NCBI RefSeq assembly: GCF_011745625.1 | Contig: NW_027191469.1 | Coordinates: 372,001-436,000 of the forward strand | Reading direction: 5' to 3' | Length of the DNA stretch: 64,000 nt | Origin: Cladosporium halotolerans | Taxonomy: Eukaryota | Shown: one piece after another, positions 26,259 through 61,492 of the stretch | How the letters are laid out: each line of letters starts with the position of its first letter | Position numbering within the stretch: the stretch's first letter is position 1 | The notes under the pieces: model-generated | Seen by the model: the letters and a program-made list of their open reading frames with translations, nothing else | Told to the model about the DNA's origin: nothing | Database searches by the model: none | Translations under genes and position numbers: made by a program

Positions 26259-28605
26259 ATGCCGACACAAACAATGGCCGGCCAAAGGTTTGCCATGATT
26301 CTCGTGAATATTACTCTCATAGTGGGACTCGTGTGCTTACTTGCTTCCCTATCACACCTTCTCTTGTCCAGTGGCAATCATGGCGTCTCTACGAAGATTT
26401 CGGTGCGCAGCACTGAGATCAACGAAACTGCCAGACTGGATTTCTTCGAGGCTCATAGCGACAGATTGAGTCTTACTGGCATAGCGAAGCGAGCGCTCAT
26501 TGCCCGCGATGGTACTGATTCAGAAGAAGACTCCGAAAGCTCTCAAGATGAGAAAATGCCTGATGCTCCGCCAGCGACTCCAGCAGGGCAGGGCAAAGAC
26601 ACCAAAAGCTCATCAGACGTGGAAATGCCCGACGCTCCTCAAGCGACTCCTCCAGGACAGGGCAATGCGCCCTCTTCTAGTGCTCCGAACCCCTCAGGAC
26701 AGCCTGGCTGGGTCAACCCCTTCGGACCTTTCCAGGGGGGCCCTCCGTCGGCCCTTGGAGTACCTTATGGGCAGCAGCGGGCCCCTCCTGGTTCGATTCC
26801 CGCGGGTCACCAACAAGGCTCCTATCGCTCGATGGAGAATCCCCAGCAGATCCCAGATTATTCCTTTTCCGGAGACCCAGGTCCCTCTTTTGATGACGGT
26901 TACACGGGTCCTCGTTTGCCATCTGAACTGGGTCTCACTGGACACCAAATACCTCCCTACGGTTACAATGATCCAAGGCTTCAGGCAGTGGCTCCCAACT
27001 TTCAATCGATTGCTGCTTCTGCGAGGCCTCTTGTTTATAATCCACAGCCTTTCATGGTAGGCTACCATTCCTGGTGTCACGCGGATCCCATGAATCAAGG
27101 GGCGCCTACTGGAGCTCAGCCAATGCCTGCGTATCCACCGCCCCAAGGCCGGGGAGTTCCTCATATGGCATCGGGAGCGCCTCCTGGAACCCAGCCCATG
27201 CCCGCATATCCACCACCTCAAGGGCGGGGAGTCCCCCATATGGCATCGGGAGCGCCTCCCGGGGCTCAACCAATGCCTGCACATCCACCGCCCCAAGCCC
27301 AGATAATCCCTCCCACCGTAGTAGGAGCTCCACCGCAAGCGGTCGCCATCGGCCAGAATGTACCTGCCAGCCCTCCCGCATCCTGGGTTCAGCTTGTCTT
27401 CCTGACCTGGAAGACGTATATCCCACTGATGTATGCAGACATCCAGGCAGCGAATCAAGCAATGACGGATCTCAAAAGGAGAAATGCCCCTCCTGGTGGT
27501 TGGCAAAAAGATAACTTGATGTGGTACCACACTGTTGAGTTAATGCGCAACAACCCTCACAAATCATACAAGTGGCGACAAGTACTTTGGGTTCAGTCGC
27601 AACCGCCTGGCGTTAGTTTGAGACCAGTCCAAGCTGCGCTCTCAAGGCTACGCCTACCGAATACAAACCAGCAGATCCATGTTCAGTCTTCGCTTGCTTC
27701 CCCAAAGATTTTGTGGCAGCAACAGCACCAATGGACCCTTCGGGTCAGTCCACAGCAGTTCGTAAGTTGATTTGAGAATTCAAAGGCCAGAGCCCCTGTG
27801 TTCCGGCGACATTATGCTGACATTTCCTTTCCAGCCGCCCACATATGCCAATCATCTTTTGGCATACGACCACGACAACGGAATAATTATTGTTTGTGAA
27901 AGACAAAGCATGAATCATATTGCCAATGGAATGCCACAGATAAAAGGCTTCATGGCCCAACATAGCTATGCGGGAAGGATCGATGATTGGCTTCCCCCCG
28001 CGTGGGATGAAGCAGTGCTCATTGCTTACGACTGGGAGCGTTTGCGCTTGGAAAAGTACCCCCAAGGTTCCGAACTACGCCAGCCTTTCTCTGAAGTTGC
28101 TCCGCTGCACTATATTGTGTTCCAATCGGTCCAACTCAGTGAAGATTCTCTTGGGGTTATCAAAGCGCTGCTCGAAAGTGCGTGTGGAAAAAACCAGAAC
28201 ACTATTCTCGCTGGGCCCCAAGGTGCCGTCTTTCGAATTGGGGACTATCAACACAGTGCGATTCTTGCCCTACCAGAGTTCGACTGGTTGATGCGGCTGC
28301 TGGTTGATCGAAAGACACAATTTGGCAGGAAGGTCTTATCAGAAGTTAGGATGTTCATTGGCGAAGGCGACAACGGAGACACGCCTAGCTTCATCTGGAC
28401 TCTCAGACAATCTGTTGACGTTAGTCTCAACGATGCTGCAATGCGGCATTACATGTTCATGAAAACGGCTCTGGAGAAGAAGATCGTTGACCAGGATACT
28501 TTTAATCAAGACCCAACGATGATGAGCATCTACAGAGAGGAACAAAAATTTATCAGGGAAGGCGGTCAAGCGTTTGATGGAATTCCACTTCCTGGAGTAG
28601 ATTGA
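26259..28605 (+). CDS. secreted or membrane-anchored hypothetical protein with Pro-rich tandem repeats and a globular C-terminal domain, spliced
   Basis: Hydrophobic N-terminus and a KR site. Phase-0 intron 27762-27834 (GTAAGT..GCTGAC..CAG) fuses the 503-aa and 277-aa ORFs (PQQF-PPTYAN). Confidence 0.75.
27100..27300 (+). repeat. 75-bp (25-aa) coding tandem repeat, ~2.7 copies
   Basis: GAP[TP]G[AT]QPMPA[YH]PPPQGRGVPHMAS repeated, with synonymous differences between copies. Confidence 0.9.
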
Positions 28606-31541
28606 CGGGCGGCATTCGGGAAATGATTGTGATTCTGGGGGGTTTTAGAGGCTTGATCTGCTTTCTCATGTACTATTTCAACATCAAACTCTCCCTTCTT
28701 CCTCCATCTCAAAATCTAAGAATCCGGTGCTGTACTCTCCTACATGTGTGCAAGCATGAATTGCCACTGGGAGAGACAGTTTTGGTGGGCTCGGAAAAGA
28801 GCATATAATCTCCCATCTCTCCGCTTTGCGAACCTCAACATAAGTGCTGCCTTCTCCTCGCAACTTGCAGCCTGGGAAAAACAACGTCATCAGACTTTCA
28901 CATGCGCATCAAAGCTTCTGCAGCTCCGATTTGAAAATTCAAAATGAGGTGCTACCTTCTCCTTCCGCACTCTGAACGCGCATTTTGGTTGGGAGAGACG
29001 AGCCGTCGCGAGTTCGGAACAAGCATGAAATACGCTTTCTCTAATTGAGCTGAGTCGAAGCCAGCATTCTCCGTCAAGCCTCTAGGGATAGACTTGGCTC
29101 TGGCAAAGCTGGTAGATTTGGTGTCTCTGAGTCCGTCTTGAGAACGAACATCTGGAAGCTCTGACGATCTCCTCTTTCCCTGTCCGAACATGCCTTACGA
29201 AACAGCCTGTTATCTTCTTCACTGTCTTGATGAGAAGAATTTCGTCCGCAGAGCCGACAGTCCCTGAGCCTTGATTGTAAATGAAAACAAAGGCTCGAAA
29301 ACGCCGTCACACTTTCTTTTCTCCAACTCGTAATCAAACCGTCAGCGGTATCATGCTACCTCCTACACTTGATGCCTCGCGATAGATTTCCATTGGCCAA
29401 ACAGAGACGTCAGGCTTCATATTGCACGAAATAAAGTTGTGTACCAGTTCCTGATCAAGGCGGGACAGCTGCCGATGACACACAGAATACCATGTGATTT
29501 GGTGATCAATGACTGCAAGCCCTCTGCCAGACTATTAGACAGGCTCGTTGCAACGCTAACGGATGTCTGCAGCGGCAAGTAAAGGCATCCGATATTTCAT
29601 TACTTGCGTGTCCCGAAAGCACGACCGAAGGTCTTTCTGTCAATCTTTTGGCGAACACAATCAGGCAGAGCTTGATCAACCTCGATTTCCGAGCGCGAAA
29701 CACTTGGACTCTATACAAGCGATACCCACGAGGTGGGTGACGAGCGAACTTCTTTGTAGTCCGTTGCCGTAGCACATGGCTCTCGGAGTTAGTAAACAGT
29801 ATGTTACGTTTGTCTCCAAAAAAAGTCTCATCATTCGGTTGATGAAAGCTCATGGCCCTCGGACTGCCTACGAGGATCTGTAGGTGGGCGTGGAAGAGTA
29901 CAGACTAGCCGCCACTTGTCTTCGTACGTCACAGGCAGGCGGCATTCCGCTCAAATATGCTCGTAGAAGACACGCAGATGATTGTGCACAACAGTTACAA
30001 AACTAACGTTTGGTCGCAGACCCCACTACTTATGGTCAAAGAGCTCTCATCGTTGGATGGGTAGTTTATTTTCGCAATTACCTATACAGCTCATTGGGAG
30101 GGCAGATCGGTGATGAAAGTATGAGGCCAACCGTTTATCTATGCATCAGTCTCCGCACCCCCAAACCGGAGCATGTTATGGTCTGTTAGGCTGGTCTGAA
30201 GGGATGGTTGATGACAGCAAGCCATGGTCGGTCACTCCGGTGCTGACAGTTCTGGGCTTAGCAGTGTGTCGTAATGGAGTTCTGCATGGGTCACGAATCC
30301 GACTTTTATGTGCTTGGTAGTGCGTGTGATGCCTCTAAACCCCCACGTAAAGTCGAATTCGACCATACATAAACTTGCATACCAGACCGTACAACAGAAT
30401 TGCCAACAGCCGCTAGCGTGGCAACCAGCCCGTACAATGGCAGCGTAAGAAAAGTACCAAGCGTGAATCTGATCTGGAGTACCAATGAAGATCTTACGGT
30501 CATCCGAGGTGAGGCAGAAACTGAGGGGTGCCCGGTGTCCTCTCATTTCGTCTCTCACTTCACAAACCATTGAAGTCAGGGATGATGCAATCGACAACTC
30601 ATACACACATACAGTTGACATCGGCGACAACGAAAAATGATCTGTCGGTGTCTTCTGTTGCACATCTCGCACTGAAATCCTGTTCCATAGCCACCAGAAA
30701 TTCTGTTGAATTACTTCCTCCCGCGATGTTCGCGCGCTTCGACACTTCTTAACTGGATCCGGGTTTCGGCGATACGCCGGTCGCTGAACACGCCTGATCT
30801 CAAAAAGGTCTCTCGAATCAGATGTGATCTAGGATTGTAATTCTAAGCAAAGGAGTGGATTGGGTCACCTTGCTTGCACAGCTCATTGCTTATGCGGCCG
30901 CTCAGCCTTGGAATACATTCACAAGGCAGCTGAGCTGACACACAGCTCTATGCGGGGTAGCAACATGCGGAGTAGTCGTGGCTCGGAACTGATGAATACT
31001 GTATAGTAGTTCTAGCGTTGAGGCCGATCAAGTCAGCTGCGATAGGGTCTATGCCGTCGTGCCTACGCCAGTCCATTTAAACAGAACATTTTGCAGACAA
31101 GCTCGACATAAGCCAGACAGCAAAGGTGAATTCATGGAACCTTAGTAAGTTTGGATATCTTCTGCCATTAATCAGCCTGACAGTAGACTCGGCATGTGAG
31201 CAAGCGCTGAACTCTCCAATGTTGTTTGCGCGAGCATCCTGGCCCCTACCCCTAGAGCATCACCAGTATTGCCGAGATGCACGCTGTGGCTGTTCGCTAA
31301 AGCGAGAAAAGTCAATACAGCTGTGTACCTTTGGTAGCTCTGATAGTTGGACATCGTCTATTGGAGCTCATGACATGGATAGAATTTACGTTTGATGCAA
31401 CCCTGGGTGTGTGAGGGACGCGAATTGCATTCGCAAGGCGGTTTGACCGATCGATCCGATCACTCCTCTTACCTCCAACCTACCAATACCTGGTGAGCTA
31501 TACTAAATGTGTAGCACGTAGCTGTCTGCGTCCGTGAATGC

Positions 31542-32927
31542 ATGATCTCCTGTCCCGCAACTCCGCTTACTGTTTTCATGGGGCAAAACGAACGTTCGAT
31601 CAAGACAAGAGTACTGCGAGACATGGCATCTACCAGACGAAGATTGTTGCCAGTCTTCTCTTTCATGCGCTTCATCAGTTGGCTAGTACCTTGGTCTTGG
31701 ATTCGTGATCCACGGGGCTACAGTCAGGGCCCAAAGGAGACCTCCACCCACCTAGAATCCGCGGCGTTGGACGAACAGACTGACGGGTATCTATCAGTGA
31801 GCAACGATGATCTGGAATATCTTACTCGAGGAGAGGCTGAGCAAATCATTGAACGGTTCAAGGAGATACCGCAAAGCTATGACAGATTGTTATTCTGGAC
31901 CGGCATTCCCAGAGAATGGGTCCAGCAATGGGCAGATGATCATGGCATGTTGACATTTACTTCGGCGATGGGCTACTTGATGGACCGTACGGACCCACGG
32001 TGTTTGAAGAGGGTTAAAAAGCTAAAACAATGGAGCAAGTATGTCAGAGGTGCATCTGGAATCTTTGCACGTTTTGCCTGCGGGCGTGGTATCATCAGAG
32101 TGTTGACGTTACCTCCTTCTTGGGCAGGATTCATTCGACCCCAGTCGACATATCGCACCATAGAGGAGCCTGTACTGAAAGGAACATCGGGATGCTGCTG
32201 TGCTGTGCAAATCAATACAGTGCATCTTTTGACAACGCTGGAGCAGCTAGAATATCAGACCTGGCCGGAGAATCACATACCAGAGGGGCTCAGATCTCCG
32301 GGAACAGGATCTTTCGACTTCAGAATTCCAAGATGGATTCGAAAAGCTGTGAAGGCTGCCACCGAGAGCTTGCGATCCAACGTTGTGAGGTTTACAGCTT
32401 TTCCAACTCCCAAGCCGGCCAATGCCAATATTGTGTCGGGCGGATCAGTCAGAAAGACTAGCGAAACACAGTCAGCTAAGCAACCGAAGGATGGCAAGCA
32501 ATCAGCGAGCAAGCCCAATGCACAAGGTAGTCTACAGCTGCAGAGCCAGCAACCACAGAGCAAGATACAGCAGCCGCTGAACCAGCAATCGTCGAGCAAA
32601 ACGCAGGAGCCGCGAAACCAGCAGCCGAAGAGCAAGAAGCAGTCGCAGAGTTCGCAGGTGCAGCGGCACTCGCAGAGTCAACAGCCGCAGAGCACAAAGC
32701 AACCACCACAGAGCAAGAAGCAACAGCCGCAAAACCAACAGCCGCAAAACCAACAGCCGCAAAACCAACAGCCGCAAAACCAACAGCCGCAAAACCATCA
32801 GCCGCAAACCCAACGGCCGCAAACCCCACGGCCGCAGAGCACAAAGCAACTACCACCGGCGAAGAAGCAAAAGCCGCAAAATCAACAGCCACAGAGCAAG
32901 AAGCAGCAGTCACAGAACCAGCGGTAA
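31542..32927 (+). CDS. putative ADP-ribosyl cyclase (CD38/ARC)-like domain protein with a Gln-rich repeat tail
   Basis: 461-aa ORF. The motifs LLFWTG, MLTFTSAMGYLMD, ASGIFARFAC, IIRVL and STYRTIE occur in the same order as CD38 motifs. C-terminus is Q/P/S/K/N repeats. Start codon uncertain; function inferred by eye. Confidence 0.65.
   Translation: MISCPATPLTVFMGQNERSIKTRVLRDMASTRRRLLPVFSFMRFISWLVPWSWIRDPRGYSQGPKETSTHLESAALDEQTDGYLSVSNDDLEYLTRGEAEQIIERFKEIPQSYDRLLFWTGIPREWVQQWADDHGMLTFTSAMGYLMDRTDPRCLKRVKKLKQWSKYVRGASGIFARFACGRGIIRVLTLPPSWAGFIRPQSTYRTIEEPVLKGTSGCCCAVQINTVHLLTTLEQLEYQTWPENHIPEGLRSPGTGSFDFRIPRWIRKAVKAATESLRSNVVRFTAFPTPKPANANIVSGGSVRKTSETQSAKQPKDGKQSASKPNAQGSLQLQSQQPQSKIQQPLNQQSSSKTQEPRNQQPKSKKQSQSSQVQRHSQSQQPQSTKQPPQSKKQQPQNQQPQNQQPQNQQPQNQQPQNHQPQTQRPQTPRPQSTKQLPPAKKQKPQNQQPQSKKQQSQNQR
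32721..32840 (+). repeat. 15-bp coding minisatellite (CAACAGCCGCAAAAC, QQPQN)
   Basis: Five perfect copies at 32721-32795, then three variants. Confidence 0.95.
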
Positions 32928-49736: not shown

Positions 49737-50282
49737 ATGTTCCGCAGCACCCTTGCCATCGCCGCCACCCTGGCCACCGCAACCAACGCCCTTTACTTCC
49801 AACTTGAACCCTTCCGCGCCACCGACATCCGCATCCCCTCCGAGAGCCACAGCGTGAGCTTCACCGTCTCCGCACCTGAGAACGTCTACGAGCAAGGCGG
49901 CAGCCAGCCCGCCAATTGCACCATCCAGTGGACCGAGGACGCTCCCACCTGCTTCCAGCCCTGCGGCGACAACACTGGCTACTACGCCCGTATCACACCG
50001 GACTCTTACGCTTTCGCTGGCGACTTTAGCATCGATATCTGGCAATCGTACGTCTACGAGATCGGCAACCACAACAACGCCACCCTCACGCTTTCTGAGG
50101 GCAACAACAACTTCAGCTGCTCGCGTGGCGGTCAGTCTACCATCTGTGAGCTCAGGAGCGATAGCCTGAAGGTCGACGAGGAGCAGCACTTTGGGTGAGT
50201 TTGGAACGAATTGCTGGACATCTGACGCCCGTACTGACTTTGATGCAGCGGTGCCGACCCGTCCGATGTCTGCTCTGCTTAA
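49737..50282 (+). CDS. small secreted Cys-rich protein (Alt a 1/AA1-like beta fold candidate), spliced
   Basis: TATAAA near 49640; signal peptide MFRSTLAIAATLATATNA. Intron 50195-50248 (GTGAGT..ACTGAC..CAG) adds GADPSDVCSA, giving 6 Cys. Confidence 0.8.
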
Positions 50283-53200
50283 ATATCCTTCCCAAAGGAA
50301 ACTTGGATTTGAATATTTAGCTGCATAACATACATGAAGTAAATACATGAAAAATACATAAAAGAACGGGAGCACACCGAGCAGCGGTCAAACCTGCTTC
50401 GGATACTTGATCCTGCAGACCCACACAACGACGATCACTACCATTCATGCTGTACCCGTCGCTGCCCTCGCAGGGCTACCTGCAAAGACATGCACTGAAT
50501 CGCCTCATGATTCTCAGGAGCAAGCCCCTGCGGCATCAGGACCGGAATCTCTGCCCTCGCTCTTAGTATCTCTTCGTGATCTACAGCCTCTCCGTCCGGT
50601 CCGAAGATGTCGCAATTTGAGACCATTACCAAGGTGGATATCGTAGTCGTGATAGCGAGGAGGAGGTCCAGTCTGTAGAGAGTCCAGAGCGAGCTGCCGC
50701 CTAGGCACCCGCCACGCCGGTTCGTCCGTCAGGAATGCGGCGTGAGTCGTCGGCGGTGGTATTGAAAGACGACGATCATCGCTCAAGCTTCTTATTGTTG
50801 GAAGTTCTGGATCGGTTTGATGATCAACTTATCCTGCAGCGCCGTTGCTCCCATTACCTCCCTTAGTATCAAGACTGCGACTCCCTAGAGATCTTGTATT
50901 CGCGATCTTTGGACGTCACTGCGTCAACTCGACGATGTCCCTCAACTGGCGGCGAAGCTGCGGTCTTGGTATATCGGTCTCCGAGGCAAGTTGTAACTCT
51001 TCGCTAGTTGTGAAGCCGATCAGAAGTCTCTTGGTGTTATTGGACCTAATTGACGCAAGGTCCAAGGCTCCTGTGATTGCAATCGTGTCGGTGATCTCTT
51101 GATGTTCTCGTGCAGTGTTGACGGTATCTACAATTGCTGGCATATGTCCGGTGTTTGCACGCTGACTGAGGGCTCCGCATCGCCCATGCGCCAATCTGCT
51201 TGTGCATCCATCTGCGACTTCTTGATGTCATTAAGCTGATGCGACGATGCTTGCTTTCGTCAGTTGACGGCGTCGACGCGAATGGTTGAACAGCCGCTGC
51301 TGTTTTTGCGCAACGGCGATGGTATCTGTGTTCGCTAGCGATTTTGGAGTATCCGATCATCTTTCGGAAGCTTCTGAGCCTCTCTGCAAAGATGTGCCGA
51401 AGCTTGCGTCTGTCGGGGCTGTCGGGTTGTTTGTGAGACTTGCCGGTGTTTGTGTAATCCGTTGACGATGATTCGATCAATCGGAGAGGTTTCCAATGTT
51501 TATACATTGTCTCAAGGACTCATGGCAATTAGACTGCTGAGCTGTCATGTATGGAGGTTCTCTGCAGCCCTGTTTCAAGTTTCAATTCAAGAAACGCGAC
51601 TCGTACATGGCGGCAATATTGTCGCCTCAATCAGGTCTCATCGAAGGATGATGTGCTTTGGAGGGCTCCGGTCGCCTCATTGGCGAAGCGACCCCTGCGC
51701 GACAATGCCCCTGTCTCCCGCACATGAACTGAGACATCATTTGAGCTTCGGACATAATGCCTCACGCGACTCGTGTTACCGTCAGATTGCCTTATGATGA
51801 GAGGCTTGATGATTCGCTTGCCATCGATCAGTATTCACTCCTGCGCGCTCTCATCGCCCTTTCGAAGTTGTCGTTGCCGCATAGCGATTTCATGATCTCT
51901 GGTTGATGGATGAGAATGCTTTCTGAACTTTTGGTGACCCTTTGACCCAGTGGATGGTACATTTTGCTTACTGAGCCACGATGGCTCGTTTGTCACACTC
52001 GAATGGCTACCCACCTCCGGCTCTGATTGTCCCGTTGCCTCCACGAGATGTCAGTGTCTCTGTAGATAGACTTGGGTATGATCTGAGCTCCGATGTCCTT
52101 GTGAAATCTACTACATCTGTTTGCAGCCATTGAGATGTCGTAGGTTGATTGAGCCTCCGCATGTCATGTGCCAATGATCGTCTGCACAGAGCTCTTGCCG
52201 CCCCACCAACGACTCCGTCTATCAACGACGACGGTGATTGCTCATGAACTGAGGTGTGGCTTGAGAGACGAAGTGTGGCAGTCACTGCTAATGAGCTGCT
52301 ACGATCATGCGGTGATCTGCTTGGCAGTGATCCTGAGATGCAGACGGCTGTCCCCTATCACGCGTAGAAGCACCTTGTGTTTCACGACATCCTGCGAACA
52401 CCTCGCGTGTCCTCCGTAATCTGTCTGCTCGATCATCACGATGATGCAACAATTCTAAAGCAACCCCAAAGCATTCCCCTTACAGCGAACTCAACCTTTT
52501 CGCATCCCACTCATGACCGCATGTAGATCTTCTCTCTGAGCCACCGCTTTAGCCTCTAAAGGCGACTCGAGAAGCTTCCCTAGTATCCTAATCGTGCTCG
52601 GGCTTCTCAGAATCCTCATTGTTCTCCGCCCCTTCGGCCTCTTTGGCCTTCAGAGCCTGCTCGGCTGTCTCAACTTTCTCCTTCGCATACTTTTTTTTGG
52701 CTCACGTAGGGAGTCGGTCTTGGCCCGCAAGGTAGTGAAGACCAAGCCATCTCTCTATCTCTCCGTCATCACTGCCTCGTCATTTGCAGAGGTATGTCGG
52801 ACATATTGAGGTGGCGTGAGATGGTTTGGCATCCCTTTGCCCTGAGCGGTCGATCATCCGCATGGGCGAATTGCTGCCCCCTTGACAATTTTATGGTTCT
52901 GCTGTAACTCATTGATCGCGAGTGAAGCACCTAGAGCACTATCAGACATCGTTACAAGCGGGCGAACGTTGGGGTGTGGCTTTGATTCGCATAGATTTGG
53001 TTCGGGAGAGGGTCACCTAGGATGGGCGATCGATGGTTTGGGTGACCTCTTTGCAAGTCACTGGGATCGGTTTCGAATTGTGCGGCGGATCCAACTGAGT
53101 ACGTAAACCTGAAAGACATCTACTGCTTTTTGAGATCCATGACCCTGTAGGATGGAATAGGTTGCTAAGCTCCGCGCTGGATTTCCAGAATTGATTGTCT

Positions 53201-53459
53201 AAGCCGGGAGCTTTTGTTCTGCAAACTTTTGGGTGGATGGTGTGAGCTGTCACATCAAGGCTCTACTGATCGCTGTAATCTCCGATCTGGTGAGCTCTAG
53301 TAGGCTTGTACCGCTCTGAAATCCCCGGGATCGTTTGTTTACTCGGAGGACCTATGTCTTGGGTCATGCAAATATGCGCATAGAAGTGCGGAAATTTCAG
53401 GCACCCATGAGCTAGCTTGAAGGGTTTCTACTTGGATACTCTTATCTGTCCAAATATCG

Positions 53460-54485
53460 TAAGCTGTTACCCTCCGCTCCAACCTGTACGACCGAACGAG
53501 GCCTATTGACGCTGAGAGCCTGGTGTCCCATGCCTTACAGACCTTTGCGCGAGGGCTATCGTATACCGCTGAACCGGAAGATCCAATGTTTTGGATTCTC
53601 TGCGTTTGTGATGTGTCTTCCACTGCTATCTTGGGCTCTAGACCTCTGCAATCGGTCATTGACGTGGGAAGTGTTTCTTGTTCCTTGTCCAAAACATTCG
53701 CTAGGGGCTGTCACGTGCCGAGAAGCCTCCACTCAGGTTCTCGGGGTCTGTGTAGTATTGTGAGCTGCTACCCTCCACTCCAGACCTGTACGATCGATTA
53801 TTAACGCGAAGAGGATCCTGCAAGCTTCAGTTTGGGGGCCGTGATATGCGAATTCTTGCTCCTGTGAAGTATTATGAGCTGCTATCCTCCGCTCTAGACC
53901 TGAACGATCGGATATTGACGTAGGGAGAGTCGCAGAAACTGTCGCTGGGGGGCAGTCACATTCGGAGAAGACTTCACTTTGGATTTCCTTTCCTTTGTGG
54001 TACTACAAGCTGCTACCATCCGCTCTAGAGTAATATGATCGATTGATCACGGGGAGAGAGCACTGCAATTCTTCACTGGGGCGCTCTCACATGTTGAGAA
54101 GCGCCAGTAGGATTTCCCGATCTTTTTAAATCTGATAAGCTGCTACCATCCGCTCTAGACTAGTATGATTGATTCCTCAAGGGGAGAGAGACCTGCAAAC
54201 TCTGGCTGCGGGCTGTCACATGCCGAGGAGGTTCCACTTGTGTTCTCCGATCTTTTGAAGTATTTTGAGCTGCTATCATCCGCTCTAGCCCAATGTGATC
54301 AATTATTCAAGCGGAGAGACACCCAAAAGCTTTCACTAGAGGCTGTCACATGCCGAGAAGATTCCACTGTGCTCTCCGACATGTAAAAGCAATATAAGCT
54401 GCTATCCTCCGCTCTAGACTAGTATGATTGATTATTTACGCGGAGAGAAGCACCTACAAACTTTCACTGGGGGCTGTCACATGTG
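53460..54485 (+). repeat. degenerate tandem array, ~130-bp unit, ~8 copies
   Basis: Core AGCTGCTA[CT]C[AC]TCCGCTCTAGAC at 53462, 53622, 53763, 53877, 54008, 54138, 54268 and 54397. The better-preserved copies continue with GGAGAG and GGCTGTCACATG. Confidence 0.92.
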
Positions 54486-54551
54486 CCGCTCGCTAGCGTT
54501 GCCACCTGAGGAATCGCCAGCGCGCTTGGCCCGTGCTCGCGACCTGCTAAA

Positions 54552-57500
54552 ATGAACCTCCCACCACTCCACCACTCCACCACTCCAACATCCGACAACC
54601 GACCATTGCGGGTGACGAAGATGGACGCCTACGGCCATCATCGTGGTGTTAAGAGACGTCGCGCTGACGGCGAGCGCACGGGCCCACTCCCCGCACGGTC
54701 AATGTCTAACCTATCCTCCTCCTCAACTTCATCCGACATCCTCGTCGCCTCCGCACATCCCTCCACACATACCCACACTCTACACACCTACTCCACACAT
54801 ACTCACCCTAGACCCACGAACGATAACACGATGCCGGTGACGGCGGTCGTTATTCAAGGTCGACTCGTCGTCAGAGGCATTCCCGGCGACATGTTGACTG
54901 GCTTGAACGACCGCGATACCCGCCCTAATAGCCAAAATATTGCGACCGGTCAATCCTCTAGGCGCGGCGAACGATTCTCCGACGATGCCGCGTATCGCAG
55001 GGCAACCTTCAACTCGTTCAACGACAACTCAGCTCTCAACGACGACGACGAGGGGCCTAACCATAAAGGCACCTACTCCAAAACTCACATTCTCAAGCAC
55101 CCGGAGACGCAATGGGTCCACCGTGGTCAAGGTAGATACCTACCAATCTCAGCACTTCTCAATCAAGAACCGAACCGTTCACGCTCAGCATTCACTCCTC
55201 GAACCAAGCTCGCCTCCACGGCTCGGTCCTCGGGTAGATCATCACTTCGCCGTCAGAGTGGCGATGTCGACATGTCCGCCGACGACGACGCGGATCATCA
55301 CTTCATCTCGCAAAAATCACTTCCATCGAAGCGCTCGTCAGACGCTTCGTATTTACTACGTCGCAGGCAGTCTGAAGTCGACCCACTAACACCTGGTGAG
55401 TTGCGTTCTGCTCGCCGCGAACGGCGATCCGGACAACTCGCCTCTTTCGGATACGACGACGACCCCGAAGCCGACTCGGAGGACGAAGATAATCGGACCT
55501 ACACTCGGTTTGATATCGAGACTATGCCTGAATTCGATTGGCGTCATGTTGGTAACGGCTACTATAAGAAACGGTTCCCTCCCGTCGCACCGGTATCTCC
55601 CTCGAGTAGCCGTCGCGGATCTAACCGCTCCTATATGAAGGACGACTCCGAGTCACAGGATGCCGTCGGACCTAAGCGCTTCCACTCCTCTGAGCTCTCG
55701 AATTACCCGAGCGATACGTTCATCCATTGCGGGAATGGCTGGTACAGGCGCGACTCAACCGGCCAGGCGCTAAACGATCAATCAGCGATTGAGAGTAGCG
55801 ATGATGAGCCGCAGACAGACCCGACAAATTCGAAATTCTCCAAGGAGGAGTTGATCGCCTATAAGAACCTACACCCTGATGCTGGGTTCATCCACAAAGG
55901 CAACGGCAGGTACGTCCTGAACGACGACTTCGACAACTCGATTCCAAGCATTCCAGCTACAGCCTCGAATGAGCACCCGGGCCAGACTTACTCCAAATCG
56001 TATGTCATGTCGCACCCCAACGAGCCATTCTATCATGCTGGCTCTGGTCGGTGGCGTCGTGGCTCTCGCCCGACCAGAACGTCGGAATCAAGGCGCAAGT
56101 CAGACAGTCATCGGCCCCTCGTCGACGATGCTAATGTCAGCCCGAATGGGCTTGTGAACAAACAATACGTTCTCCAACACCCGGAGCTCGAGTTCCATCA
56201 CCGTGGCCAGGGTCGTTACGCTTTCGGTCCGAGACCTCAGGAAACGCCTGCTGTGCCTGCACCTCCTGCTCCAATGAGGGTGGCCAGCCCAACAACCTCC
56301 GATGCTGAGCTCGTGGACACTGCATACGTTAAGGCGCACCCGAACCAAACCTTCCACCATCGCGGCCAGGGACGCTGGGCCCGCGGTCTGCCGCCGCCGG
56401 GCAGCAGCAACAAGACCGCAGTCCGTGGTCCACTGGCCACCCAAACCAAGCCTTCAACTACCCCATCACAGCCGCCCGCCGAGGACCTTCCCGGCTTGGA
56501 CGAGCTTGTCATCAGATCGGAAGGCCCCGACAAATTCCCAGCGCTTGACTGGGTATACCGCGGCGGTGGCAAATGGGCTCGTACACCTAAGAAGAAGGAG
56601 CCTGCCGTTGCCAAGCCGTCCCGCGCGCGTACTTCCAGAGGCAGGAACACGGCAAGGCACTCCGACTTGCGAGATGACTGGGGCGCTGATGAAGAGCAAG
56701 ATTTCGAATACTCAGATGATGACTATCAGGCCATCAACGGCGATGGTTTCCAGGAAGCTCCTCAAGACAGCCATCGCTCAAGCATGAACCCCATGGAGGC
56801 TGCTGCCCGTGTCGGCTTGATACAAGGTTCCGGACGCTCAGCCTTCACGCTTGATGATGACGATGCTCAGAGACCGAACTTCAAGAGGTCGAGGAATGAG
56901 TCGCCGAGACCGGAGAGGGTCACTTTGGAGGTAGACAGGCTCAGTGATGAAGAGAATTACCCTGCTCTTTACGCCAGTGCCTGGCCCGCGCCCAGCAGAG
57001 ACGAGCCTGTCGACAAGGCGGCTCGCCTCATGCGTTCTCTCTACAAGCCTCTCAACAGCTCCGAGAAATTCATCAATGCGTTGACGAGACGCGATCCGGC
57101 AACGCGCCCTAAAGAGGTCCTCCAGGCCACGACCGACCATATGTCGAGGCTGCTGCGAGAGCTTCAGGATGAGTATCTGGAACTGGACAAGATCACCGCA
57201 CCACACGCACGCATTGCCCGCAAGCCGGCCAGAGGCGGCAGGGTGCCCGTTGACGATGCCGTCTACGAGGACAAGAAGGAAGCGGACCTCTACGACTACA
57301 CTTTCGACAGCCGCAAGATCGGCTTCCAGAATCCAGAGTTGCAGAAGATCGTTCGCGATGCTGAGGGCCGCGAGCTCAGGAAGCGTCGTCGTGCTCGCGA
57401 AGCAATCGAAACCGAGGCCGCTGCAACTCCAGGCGGTGAAGAAAATGCTGCGTTGGCGCCGAGACGTGCCGTGAAGCCAGTCAGCCGCTTCGATGCGATC

Positions 57501-58007
57501 GCTACCACCTCTACGCGCAAGAAGCGTACTACGACCGGAGCCGAGAAGGCCGCGAGCGAGACGCCCGATCCCACCACTGCTGCCTCTGGCTCGCAGTCGC
57601 AGGTCCTGCCTGGTGGTTACGTCGTGCGCAAGGTCGGGCGCTGGAAGAACCACATCCCCAAGCGTATCCGCGAGCTGCGCGGAGACAGCGTGAACGCCAC
57701 CCAGCCCAACGGCGCAGCATCCGCTACCGTTGACGAGGGCGCCGCCAGATCGGACACACCTGGCGCCGTTTCGGACTCGCCGACTCTCGAGGGCTCGCCT
57801 GGTCCAGTCCGCAAAGGCCGCCCGAAAGGTAGCAAGAACCTGCACAAGCGGCGCGATGCCGGCATTCCCAAAGGACCTCGCAAGCCGAAGGTTGTTGCCT
57901 CGATTGAGAGCACGGCTGCTCCACCGGCGCCTTCAGCTCCGTTCTACAGGGACCCGATTCTCGCTCAGGCCAACCCATTTGGCGGGTTCGGAGGCCGATT
58001 CGGCTGA
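54552..58007 (+). CDS. hypothetical nuclear protein with 8 HxGxG[RWY] repeat modules and a C-terminal AT-hook-like motif
   Basis: 1151-aa intact ORF with repeated ~26-aa modules, basic NLS-like tracts (ELRKRRR) and RKGRPKGSK. Confidence 0.85.
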   Translation: MNLPPLHHSTTPTSDNRPLRVTKMDAYGHHRGVKRRRADGERTGPLPARSMSNLSSSSTSSDILVASAHPSTHTHTLHTYSTHTHPRPTNDNTMPVTAVVIQGRLVVRGIPGDMLTGLNDRDTRPNSQNIATGQSSRRGERFSDDAAYRRATFNSFNDNSALNDDDEGPNHKGTYSKTHILKHPETQWVHRGQGRYLPISALLNQEPNRSRSAFTPRTKLASTARSSGRSSLRRQSGDVDMSADDDADHHFISQKSLPSKRSSDASYLLRRRQSEVDPLTPGELRSARRERRSGQLASFGYDDDPEADSEDEDNRTYTRFDIETMPEFDWRHVGNGYYKKRFPPVAPVSPSSSRRGSNRSYMKDDSESQDAVGPKRFHSSELSNYPSDTFIHCGNGWYRRDSTGQALNDQSAIESSDDEPQTDPTNSKFSKEELIAYKNLHPDAGFIHKGNGRYVLNDDFDNSIPSIPATASNEHPGQTYSKSYVMSHPNEPFYHAGSGRWRRGSRPTRTSESRRKSDSHRPLVDDANVSPNGLVNKQYVLQHPELEFHHRGQGRYAFGPRPQETPAVPAPPAPMRVASPTTSDAELVDTAYVKAHPNQTFHHRGQGRWARGLPPPGSSNKTAVRGPLATQTKPSTTPSQPPAEDLPGLDELVIRSEGPDKFPALDWVYRGGGKWARTPKKKEPAVAKPSRARTSRGRNTARHSDLRDDWGADEEQDFEYSDDDYQAINGDGFQEAPQDSHRSSMNPMEAAARVGLIQGSGRSAFTLDDDDAQRPNFKRSRNESPRPERVTLEVDRLSDEENYPALYASAWPAPSRDEPVDKAARLMRSLYKPLNSSEKFINALTRRDPATRPKEVLQATTDHMSRLLRELQDEYLELDKITAPHARIARKPARGGRVPVDDAVYEDKKEADLYDYTFDSRKIGFQNPELQKIVRDAEGRELRKRRRAREAIETEAAATPGGEENAALAPRRAVKPVSRFDAIATTSTRKKRTTTGAEKAASETPDPTTAASGSQSQVLPGGYVVRKVGRWKNHIPKRIRELRGDSVNATQPNGAASATVDEGAARSDTPGAVSDSPTLEGSPGPVRKGRPKGSKNLHKRRDAGIPKGPRKPKVVASIESTAAPPAPSAPFYRDPILAQANPFGGFGGRFG

Positions 58008-58349
58008 TTTGAGCTCCGTGTTGCTGTCCACTGGGAGGAAACTGACGATTCCTCATTCCTTTTGACTTCAGATTTTGAATAAACATTGGCCTTTGGGGGG
58101 CATCAAATGGCTCGATGGACAGCGGAAAGCACAGACGGGGTTGTTCTGGCTATGCTTGTTATGCGGAGTTTGGCTTTTTCTCATTCCTTGATTGTATTAC
58201 TGAGCACGAAATAGGTGCATTTTTGATGACTTTCAGGATGATAGCACTGAAATTGGCTAGAAATGAGTACTTGGAGTGTAGCTAGCCAGAGAAATGACAA
58301 TCCCGTCTCACTGCCCATTTCCCTGTATCTCCGGATTGATAATTTCACA

Positions 58350-59475
58350 TGTGCTGCTACCATCAGCTCCAGGCTACTGAAATGCAATTTTGACGCGGAG
58401 AGAGCACGAGATCCTGGCCATATTTCTCTAAGTCACCTCGTCTCACGAACACCTTAAGCTGCTACCGTCGGCTTTAGCCTACTGAAATGCAATTGTTACA
58501 CGGGGAGGGCACAAAATTGAGGCCGCTTTTTGCTGAGTCTGTCATCTCACGAACGCTTATGAGCTGCTACCATCAAGCTCAGCCTATTGAGGTGCAATTT
58601 TTGCTCGGAGAGAGTACGAAAACGCGGCCGATTATCGCAAAGTACCTCATCTCCGGAACGCCCTTAAGCTGCTTCCATCGGCTTCAGCCTACTAATTACA
58701 TGTGATTTTTGCTCGGAGAGAGCTCGAGATCCCGGCTATCATTCGCTAAGTCTTTCATCTCGCCAACGCTTACGAGCTGCTACCATCGGCTTCAGACTAC
58801 CAAGACGGTATGTTTTTGGTGGAGAGGCCTTTAGAAATCCTAGCTTTTCCCTCGAAGTCACTCATCCCCGGAGCACATATGAGCCGCTACCATCGCCTCT
58901 GGACTATTGACACGTAATTTTTCGGCGGAAGAGACCATTTAGAACCTTAGCTTTTTTTTCCCCAATTTGCCCGGTACCTCATCTCACGGGTGCCTCTGAG
59001 CTGCTACGATCGCCCCTAGACTCCTGAGAACGCATTTTGAAGGGAGAGATCTCTGGATTCTCAGTAGTCTTTCCTCTCTAAGTACTTTGTCTCCCGAACG
59101 TGTATGAGCTACTATCATCGCCTCTGGACTACAGGGAAGCCACTATTCCGCAGAGATGTTATCACATGCAAGCCGACTAAATCATTCATCTCACGAACGA
59201 TTGTACGCTGCTACAATCACCCATATAATATTTATGGATAATCTTTTGGACGGAGAGACTACTCAACATTACGTGAGTCTATCTCCAAGTGATTTATCTC
59301 CCAAACGGATAAACACTACTACCATCACCTATGAACTATTGAATAGTATCTTCTATCAGGGGAAACCTATTTAATACATGGCTAAGTTTGTCTAAATAGT
59401 TAATCTCACGATCGTACATAAGCTACTAAAATCACCTGTAGCCTATCCAGAAACGCGTTTCCATAGAGAGAACGT
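58350..59475 (+). repeat. degenerate tandem array, ~106-bp unit, ~11 copies
   Basis: Core (A)GCTGCTACCATC at 58352, 58457, 58562, 58667, 58775, 58882, 58999, 59107, 59206, 59314 and 59421. Most copies continue with GGAGAG and ATCTC[AC]CGAAC-like motifs. Confidence 0.92.
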
Positions 59476-61492
59476 AGATAATTGAGTTCCTCAGTTATAG
59501 CTATACATTTTCTTGTAATTCGTAGGTAATTCTATGGATGAATATTCAACAATCTGGCATTCCAAGTAAAAGAGAGTAGATTCAATCTAGACAAGATCGG
59601 ATAGGATGATAAAGATTACTGGAATGCTACTATTTTTGACAATACTTCGCGAATTAATTCATTAGCAAATTGAGCTGCGAGTTGTCTCACAGCTTGCCTC
59701 CTTTCGAGCATGATGGGATTCACGGAAGAGTCTGCACTGCCACCGCCGTCTCCAGACTACTACGAGCAGCCTTCCTTTTGAGATGCCATCACCTCCAAGC
59801 ATTGAAATATCTCCGATTCCACGTGCGGACTCGAAATATTGCCATGGCCTTCGGACTATCGAAGGGGTGGTTTTCACTCTGAATTGCAAGCCTTACCTCA
59901 AACTCGCTCCTTTCACAAATGTCTTTGACTCTGCGAGCGTATAAGAGGTCGCTACTATTGCCTCCGGCCTAGCGAAACGTGTTCCTTTCTCTAAGAGGGC
60001 CCAATTGCTTCCCATCCCTCTTCGAAGAATGGCAAAGACGACTCCAACTGCCATAGCGACGTACACGGAAAATACATCGGCGGCGGCGCGACGGAGAAGC
60101 ATCGGAGGCTGGACCTAAAGAACCGACCACCGCTTCGATGGCCCAAGATGGCCAGGACGATGAAGATCAACCCAATGAAGAACAATCGTGAATTGGTGGC
60201 TTCAGAGATCAGTGCATCCAGCTCAATGATCAATGAATGTGATATGCGTCGGTATAGAGCTCCTCTGACAGACTTGGACTGTTCCCAAGGACAAGTCCTT
60301 CACAGAATTGAAGGGCTGTCAGGTCAGCCACTCCTTTGATCACACTCACGATAGCATACAGCTGTCAAAATATAAGAGCACCTCGATTCCAGATGTCTCC
60401 AGGCCGAGGGAGAAATTTGTCCCGCAATCACCTTTGGTTCCTCCCCCAGCCTACTGCATATGGTGACTTTCAACAAGACAGAACACTGCTGGACCATTCA
60501 TCTTGAGCACTTGCAAACGATCAACGGAGGGCATTTCGAACTGCACACAATCCTGCAAGCAGCCGCTAGCGGTGTACCGACTGTGTCCAATCATTCGCCC
60601 GGCATCTGCGAGTGTCGATGGACAAGGCGATCCATCTGCCGGGCATACAGATGGAAACTGGCGCGCTGTGCCGACGTCCTTAAAGGGCTTTGCGAGCCTG
60701 AGCACCTATGCGGAAACGCTTTCACCTTCGTTGCATCAAGCCAATCAGACCGTTCCTCTGAGGGTGCTGACAGGAAGACTTCCATGGCTGCAGCGATAAA
60801 TATGGAGGACTAAGGCTGAACAGGCACAGGCAGCAAACGAACTTCCACCAGTACTGCAAAATTCGACAGATTTGAATGCTTTCTGGGCAGGATGCTAGCG
60901 TGACAGGGTGGCAACCTCCTCGGAGGCGCGGATCGACCGAAAGACACCAGCTAGTGGTGTAACGCGTTCTTCCCATGGTCTGCATTGTCTCCGGCAAACC
61001 AGCGAGGCGAAGACCAACTACGGAGTCAAAGCCTCTGCTAGGCAAACAACGTATACATGAGCCACCGCGTTCGCGCCTGCGATTAGTCTTGTCACCTCAG
61101 ACTCAATCCATTTCCTGTTGCGGGCTGTGAGGGCAGCCCTGCGGAAGGACGGGGTGGTGATTTGCTGATTGTGCGCGCGATCTGTGTTAGTCTGATATCG
61201 CTTTTGCATGTTTCACCTGCAACACAACAGTCCATCAGCGATTGGAACTGGAGACTTTGAGAGAAAGCCAGCGCAAGGTAATGAATAATGGTATAATGTC
61301 CGTTACATAACATGAAAGCAAGTCCGGGTCTCCAAGCGCACGGCAAATCCAGCTATGCGCGACCAGTCCGTCCCTCAAATCCGTCGACGAGCTTTGCCAA
61401 GCTCAACCTTATTAAAACTCCGCGAACGCCTCGCTGTGTGAATCGTATCCTGCTGTCCGCCGCATCTTTGAAGATGTTTCCATGGGAGGTGC

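Follow-up and report, generated by a model that had tools for sequence, protein, structure and literature searches.

Fungal promoters are known in which an element has been copied in tandem. Aspergillus fumigatus cyp51A carries such repeats (TR34, TR46 and TR53), as does Penicillium digitatum (a 126-bp repeat), and the TR34 copy duplicates factor sites and raises expression (PMC4954732). Satellite families of Meloidogyne share two conserved boxes, Box 1 and Box 2, which have been proposed to be protein sites or recombination points (PMC3694981), and tandem repeats occur commonly in a related genome (PMC4522978). Here we analyse a stretch of 64,000 nucleotides from the mould Cladosporium halotolerans (contig NW_027191469.1, positions 372,001 to 436,000 of the forward strand; hereafter 'the window', as a whole), in which two arrays of a non-coding three-box module bracket a gene that we call P0001. 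According to Pfam, the window encodes a Vip1-type kinase, Utp21, DUF3405, DUF5427 and a histone deacetylase, a fungal setting. A literature search of open-access main texts, supplements excluded, found no description of the module, the protein or the array.

The arrays resemble the TR34 type in having head-to-tail copies of similar segment size directly upstream of a gene. However, the TR repeats are recent and belong to a single promoter, whereas the units described here are old (39-78% alike) and are also found 3' of the gene and at unrelated loci (PMC4954732). As in the Meloidogyne satellites, the monomer families have diverged and retain a short conserved box: across the two arrays, box 1 is 87% identical, against 43% for the middle of the module, and the linkers are unrelated. 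The Meloidogyne satellites are long and have higher-order repeats, whereas here 3-11 units, each with three boxes at fixed spacing, are located at gene ends in gene-rich DNA (PMC3694981). By analogy, the arrays may work most like fungal promoter repeats such as TR34, while looking like conserved-box satellites. The reading that we favour, and to which we give an even chance, is that they consist of a lineage-specific, dispersed protein-docking module, multiplied locally at the promoter and the terminator of P0001.

Two arrays sharing a three-box module

The 13-nt core of the repeat has 18 matches in the window (at most two mismatches), all on the + strand, with a mean of 1.62 expected from 100 shuffles of the window, none of which reached 18. 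Sixteen of the 18 lie inside the two arrays, in agreement with the earlier note on this DNA, which had described co-oriented arrays of 8 and 11 units on either side of a 1151-aa open reading frame (ORF). The upstream array, U (53435..54486, +), has 8 units with a period of mostly 129-131 bp (114-159 bp in the outer units), each made up of the three-box module and a ~52-bp U-specific linker; box 1 starts at 53462, ~53621, 53763, 53877, 54008, 54138, 54268 and 54397, and pairwise identity among units is 61-78%. The array ends at 54486, 66 nt 5' of the ATG at 54552. A ninth, strongly decayed U unit (53161..53289, +) is detected by the U-unit profile (E 3e-6) and by a position weight matrix (PWM) trained on the U and D units, on which it scores 18.8 against a maximum of 8.9 in a null of 40 Markov sequences of 57 kb. 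The downstream array, D (58327..59511, +), has 11 units with a period of 99-117 bp, mostly 105-108 bp, in which the same module is joined to a ~36-bp D-specific linker. Its box-1 starts run from 58352, 345 nt past the stop codon, to 59421, and its units are 39-69% identical in pairs. Two decayed outliers lie further out on the + strand, one at 59921..60004 (profile E 0.004-0.005) and a weaker one, also found with the unit profile, at 59720-59799.

The shared module spans ~78 bp and comprises box 0 (YTCTCCG, at -25), box 1 (AGCTGCTACCATC) and box 2 (CGGAGAG, at +45), boxes 0 and 2 being reverse complements of each other. GGAGAG with at most one mismatch starts exactly at +46 in 10 of 22 units and between +45 and +47 in 15. 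In the two U units closest to the gene, and in the first of D, box 0 stands at -25; its position in the other D units is about -18. The sequence between the conserved boxes, which had been taken for a variable spacer, proves to be homologous, since the U and D consensuses agree without gaps at 45 of 57 positions; box 0 at -25 is an additional, third box. Beyond the module the two consensuses are unrelated, the best match between linkers covering 11 positions. The pattern SYGGRG occurs at 10.3 and 5.8 per kb in the arrays and at 6.0 per kb in the first 47.9 kb of the window.

Box 1 is conserved beyond chance and beyond what a uniformly decaying satellite would leave, clearly so in D. It shows 15 mismatches in 143 positions there, against 350 in 1005 elsewhere in the units, a level that none of 5000 uniform-rate simulations matched in their best window. 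The corresponding figures for U are 6 in 78 against 127 in 645 (Fisher p 0.008). The claim that the best copies lie nearest the gene and decay outward is confirmed for D, whose successive units, read outward, match the U consensus at 38, 35, 34, 30, 30, 30, 29, 22, 25 and 23 of 54 positions (Spearman -0.95 over 10 units; unit 58667, which has an insertion, was left out). The distal D units are covered by an AT-rich stretch (59000-59650) with a GC content of 0.41-0.44, a TpA/ApT ratio of up to 1.04 and a mild signal resembling repeat-induced point mutation (RIP). RIP as the sole cause of decay was rejected: the indices are mild and the U array shows no drop in GC.

A unit length of 100-130 nt, together with the ability of boxes 0 and 2 to close a 6-bp stem, is what could be expected if the units were processed into small RNAs, or if each array were a repeat-spacer guide array. 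We consider this very improbable, and an RNA array, as the earlier note had contemplated, finds no structural support. RNAalifold gave no consensus structure on the + strand and a 4-bp hairpin of -1.4 kcal/mol on the - strand; the covariation term of the terminal stem is about 0, and folding z-scores of six modules range from -2.1 to +2.1. Within each array the units can be aligned from end to end and are homologous throughout, with no unrelated sequence interposed, so there are no independent spacers of the kind that a guide array requires. Rfam gave no match up to E 5 in 51500-60500 and two chance-level matches outside the T units described below, and neither a tRNA scan nor A-box/B-box patterns found anything. 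Sequence runs, among them X1, X3 and X5, were compared as contigs; X1 may be the source of the window, and X5 comes from the same sample as X1 and is RNA-like and spliced (one GT-AG joint), its library type being without record. X5 depth is 0-1 over U and 0 over 58548-59415, which is not evidence here, as contigs cannot show the absence of small or non-polyadenylated RNA. An introner or tandem-intron origin was also rejected, with no X5 joints in the arrays and no splice signals seen by eye.

Synteny of the gene and dispersal of the module

P0001 is an intronless ORF (54552..58007, +) of 1151 aa with no Pfam match. Its ATG at 54552 is not conserved among relatives, whose starts equal 54621 or 54831, and one of these is likely the true start. 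Searches returned 91 homologues, all unnamed or hypothetical proteins; those from named sources belong almost entirely to Cladosporium, Teratosphaeriaceae and Mycosphaerellaceae, the best coming from Cladosporium fusiforme. As far as these homologues tell, P0001 is a conserved, syntenic protein of Cladosporiales/Mycosphaerellales. The order DUF5427 gene, P0001 orthologue, histone deacetylase gene is found in all five loci that span both sides (L002, L003, L005, L007 and L012, of which L003 and L012 are near-copies), which implies that the gene did not move. Its spacers measure 6.7 and 3.5 kb here, wider than in relatives, where they are about 1.1-1.5 and 0.7-1.4 kb.

This synteny largely refutes the notion of a mobile cassette, also raised in the earlier note, in which gene and arrays would travel together with the arrays as ends. 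Such a cassette would account for co-oriented repeats on both sides and for a 10-mer, TCACATGTGC, that is found on the + strand only at the two inner array edges (54477-54486 and 58345-58354). At both edges, however, TCACATGTGC is largely in register with the unit sequence, and it may reflect junction microhomology or chance; no recombinase (Pfam) is encoded near the gene, nor is a transposase. We regard the cassette as barely credible.

The arrays themselves do not follow the gene. The module is absent from all 23 orthologue loci compared (256,527 bases, many with short flanks). No core cluster, no profile match better than E 3.6 and no PWM match above 8 was found in them, and neither TRF nor k-mer autocorrelation detected a non-coding tandem array beside the gene. 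A 12-bp box-1-like word is present ~640 bp upstream of the orthologue, on the opposite strand, in L002 (7331-7344, -) and at the corresponding position in L007, and may represent a single ancestral site; only the L002 copy exceeds the null.

In run X3, the arrays are covered in 30 of 30 bins, and several X3 variants restore the consensus spacing. Their presence in the X3 strain makes them older than these strains, and on present sampling they either postdate the split from relatives with 53-57% protein identity or were lost after it. Divergence of X3 is 19/370 (5%) in a D piece against 39-45/490 and 71/944 in the upstream spacer, a weak comparison that uses a single D piece.

The module is a dispersed family and is not confined to the gene. 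A third array, T (28699..28999, +), comprises 3 units with box 1 at 28725, 28842 and 28947, hence periods of 117 and 105 bp, and a linker that differs from those of U and D; it begins ~90 bp 3' of an unrelated ORF with no Pfam match. Its unit at 28947, which was not in the training set, has the three boxes in register and a PWM score of 30.4 against the null maximum of 8.9, while those at 28725 and 28842 are decayed. One more unit lies on a different X1 contig and shares 35 of 40 letters with unit 58352; in its loose ends, inspected by eye, box 0 stands at -26 and box 2 at +45, within different flanks. A related unit was also seen in run X3. The X1 contig comparison was run at 80% likeness on 3 records and yielded that single additional unit; being insensitive, it shows dispersal and gives no locus count. 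None of the 60 U-by-D unit pairs reaches 32 of 40 identical letters, so even the two known arrays would not find each other at that threshold and further module loci are likely. Because the module occurs at other loci and the orthologues lack arrays, two outcomes that the earlier note itself had set down as counting against its proposal, the idea of a self-contained protein-plus-array system fails.

Beyond this fungus, a tandem-pattern scan of viral contigs gave no matches. A looser tandem pattern retained 28 prokaryote and 120 viral stretches, and none of these 148 exceeded 21 unit-profile positions (best E 0.044). Viral contig L073 carries sixteen pattern matches from position 2743 onwards, with a period of ~240 bp; they are unrelated to the unit profile.

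Proposed docking site or possible mobile element

A short conserved motif at 54517..54551 (+), identified by eye in four orthologue flanks (L002, L003, L005 and L007), is probably the core promoter or start region of P0001. The U array ends 31 nt 5' of it, so that tandem copies lie directly upstream of a promoter-like motif. X5 contigs cover 54643 to 58299 at a depth of ~50 and end 28 nt 5' of the D array. The gene is therefore expressed, and U and D stand where a promoter and a terminator would be, though this last point is a hint only, as contigs cannot fix RNA ends.

In our proposal the ~78-bp module, which in this fungal lineage forms a dispersed family, would serve as a docking site for DNA-binding proteins, with a central 13-bp site and two inverted CGG-bearing half-sites at fixed distances. 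Inverted CGG half-sites such as those in boxes 0 and 2 are presumably typical of Zn2Cys6 factors. Module copies would have reached both sides of an old gene that stayed in place, and ordinary tandem duplication may then have amplified each of them together with its local flank, which would explain how one module comes to sit in units of different lengths (130, 106 and 117 bp). Selection would keep box 1 and the gene-proximal copies, which, near the promoter and the 3' end, may tune transcription or local chromatin; P0001 need not be the module's reader. Should this be correct, the locus would display a lineage-specific family of rigidly spaced cis-elements that spreads and has been amplified at both ends of a gene in a compact mould genome. 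It would also offer a testable example of new regulatory DNA arising around an unchanged gene.

Array structure fits such a history. Each array (8-9 units in U, 11 in D, 3 in T) holds a single unit type, and in a tree of units U (98/97) and T (99/99) each form one supported group; arrays that group alone are as expected from amplification in place. Stepwise duplication of neighbours was rejected, as U shows no distance effect (Mantel p 0.36); the effect seen among D units (p 0.0002) is confounded with outward decay.

Several observations weigh against the docking reading. No factor has been identified as binding the module. Within the T array, the best unit is the most distant from the adjacent upstream gene. 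Orthologue flanks contain no consistent single module or box-1 copy from which the arrays could have grown, L002 alone reaching the 99th percentile of the null. The four distal D units have a GC content of 0.39 against 0.49 in the four proximal ones, and 15 CpA-to-TpA changes against 5; being AT-richer and carrying more such changes, they suggest that part of the D gradient may be mutational. As to the conservation of box 1, its excess in U alone is not significant once window scanning is taken into account (best-window p 0.20-0.27). The earlier preference for selected sites over a neutral satellite is upheld by the over-conservation of box 1 in D and less surely by U.

Lastly, boxes 0 and 2, being inverted, are also compatible with a small transposon. 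The module would in that case be the end, or the whole, of a small non-autonomous element, either a miniature inverted-repeat transposable element (MITE) or a rolling-circle element of HINE/Helentron type, that hopped locally and left head-to-tail arrays of no benefit to the host, and the conserved boxes would reflect what a mobilising enzyme needs at each copying step. We hold this to be unlikely while taking it seriously. HINE/DINE-1 Helentrons and MITE-derived satellites are likewise dispersed and lineage-specific, with short inverted repeats and tandem arrays (PMC4067079, PMC9659126), and satellites derived from MITEs and Helitrons are well known (PMC9659126). Here too the module is dispersed, lineage-specific and bracketed by an inverted repeat of 6-8 bp. 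Between box 2 and the next box 0 the linker measures 36-55 bp, near the 38-60 bp that separate the 3' subterminal inverted repeat from the end in HINEs (PMC4067079), and both flanks of the gene are enlarged relative to relatives and hold a decayed gene copy.

Other features of these elements were not seen at the locus, among them a 3' stem-loop, a target duplication and an autonomous partner, and the inverted repeats seen here are shorter than published ones (PMC4067079, PMC9659126). In 16 linkers the mean z-score for a 3' stem-loop is +0.4, with one linker below z -2, which leaves no conserved 3' hairpin. The inverted boxes extend over 6-8 bp only, against 12-15 bp in HINEs, and were seen in decayed copies. 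By eye we saw no constant flanking duplication that could mark a target site, and a six-frame Pfam scan of the flanks found no transposase or Rep-helicase remnant. Long terminal inverted repeats, such as a mobile cassette might have, were also looked for, and the longest inverted pairs, among the 25 of 148 listed, are 24-25 nt at 71-79%. The conservation of box 1 in units otherwise 39-69% alike also speaks against a transposon.

The P0001 protein and neighbouring features

P0001 contains eight modules of ~30 aa (55056..56588, +; aa 169-679) with the consensus (T/S)YxKxYVxxHPxExFxHxGxGRYxRG. In an AlphaFold model (predicted template modelling score 0.25), each is predicted to form a strand-helix-hairpin, with a pLDDT near 90, on disordered linkers. 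A central helical domain (56889..57341, +; aa ~780-930; mean pLDDT 81) and a basic RKGRP-containing motif (57810..57881, +) follow. Residues K1088-P1091 are conserved in at least 90% of 40 rows; the motif has no Pfam match, and we take it to be AT-hook-like. The central domain and the RKGRP motif persist in distant homologues (L017, L019, L021-L023; P0090-P0092) that lack the ~30-aa module, whose number varies from 0 to 13 across the family; L017, L022 and L023, the ones inspected for this, have RGG-rich tracts. Fold searches of the PDB gave no usable match for the module region (best Z 4.1, rmsd 6.4, 52 aligned) or the central domain (best Z 4.8, rmsd 3.7, 71 aligned), and PDB sequence searches and the Atlas yielded none either. 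The fold search used the module region and not a single module, and does not show a new fold.

A profile of the ~30-aa module, run against 1.84 billion representatives, returned 162 matches, of which 150 were listed and 42 scanned with Pfam. Twenty-six of the 42 have the TFIIIC B-block domain and three more DUF6581 only. DUF6581 accompanies the TFIIIC B-block domain. The 26 B-block (TFIIIC tau138) proteins, all among P0162-P0280, carry 1-8 copies of the module in their linkers. One copy is present in a Tfc4 (P0226; E 2e-43 to tau131) and one in a PHD protein (P0279), and two are present in P0186, a Scm3/GATA/Myb/forkhead protein whose gene model may be fused. The remaining scanned matches have no family or are repetitive false matches. 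Among the profile matches as a whole, many short ones are fragments of the P0001 family. Some Tfc3 copies carry the GLPPP flank that is also found at the last canonical module in the P0001 family (8 of 76 modules have it or a near form), which suggests exchange between the genes.

This company, TFIIIC and Scm3/Myb/forkhead, points to a nuclear, chromatin-related role, and P0001 is probably a nuclear chromatin-type protein. The earlier note's interpretation gains some support from the module's occurrence elsewhere in nuclear DNA-binding proteins. P0001 resembles TFIIIC tau138 (Tfc3/Sfc3) and tau131 (Tfc4) in the ~30-aa module only: Pfam finds no B-block, winged-helix or TPR domain in it, and by sequence it is not a TFIIIC subunit. 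The repeats treated in PMC3945056, in the part available, are those of the B-block domain and not the ~30-aa module. This module, without Pfam or PDB match and shared by a conserved fungal nuclear protein and a DNA-binding subunit of TFIIIC, may be the more durable result, and its ligand would show what these fungi added to TFIIIC.

P0001 might itself bind the arrays, alone or with TFIIIC, so as to regulate or insulate its own gene and act at other module loci, a prospect that we find doubtful. Its eight small folded modules and AT-hook-like motif would suit DNA binding, the same module is present in TFIIIC subunits, and this gene is bracketed by the window's two largest arrays, whose best copies adjoin it. 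TFIIIC sites act as boundaries in fission yeast, where clustered sites flank mat2/3 on both sides as IR-L and IR-R. However, the IR elements are inverted and contain five B-boxes, whereas the arrays here are co-oriented and have none (PMC4502379). The B-box pattern GWTCRANNC has no match in either array against 32 in the first 47.9 kb. No array of any kind flanks the orthologues that have 7-8 modules and 53-57% identity, and DNA binding by the ~30-aa module is purely conjectural. A bolder version, which we think a long shot, makes the array module a B-box-independent boundary or docking element at gene ends, read by the ~30-aa protein module common to P0001 and TFIIIC tau138/tau131; the product of the gene would fence it in and would find further targets at the remaining module loci. 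It would amount to a boundary system without a B-box.

Further features of the window were noted in passing. The upstream spacer of P0001 contains, on the minus strand at approximately 50450-52900, a decayed gene copy with stops and frameshifts, for which no family or named relative was found. A 63-nt piece of it (52290-52352) matches another contig in all four runs, the RNA-like one included, which makes an intact paralogue elsewhere probable; the core-like match at 52294 falls inside this decayed copy by coincidence. At 49737-50250 (+) lies a small spliced gene with a signal-peptide-like start, at least 4 cysteines and no Pfam match above the cut-off; it is absent from the relatives' syntenic spacer and has very high X5 contig depth. 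Directly 5' of the T array, at 26259-28605 (+), lie two adjacent ORFs that have no Pfam match and probably form one spliced gene, with a hydrophobic start and Pro/Gly-rich coding repeats of 69 and 75 bp. Finally, a 461-aa ORF without Pfam match at 31542-32927 (+) ends in Gln/Pro-rich repeats of 15 bp and 36 bp.

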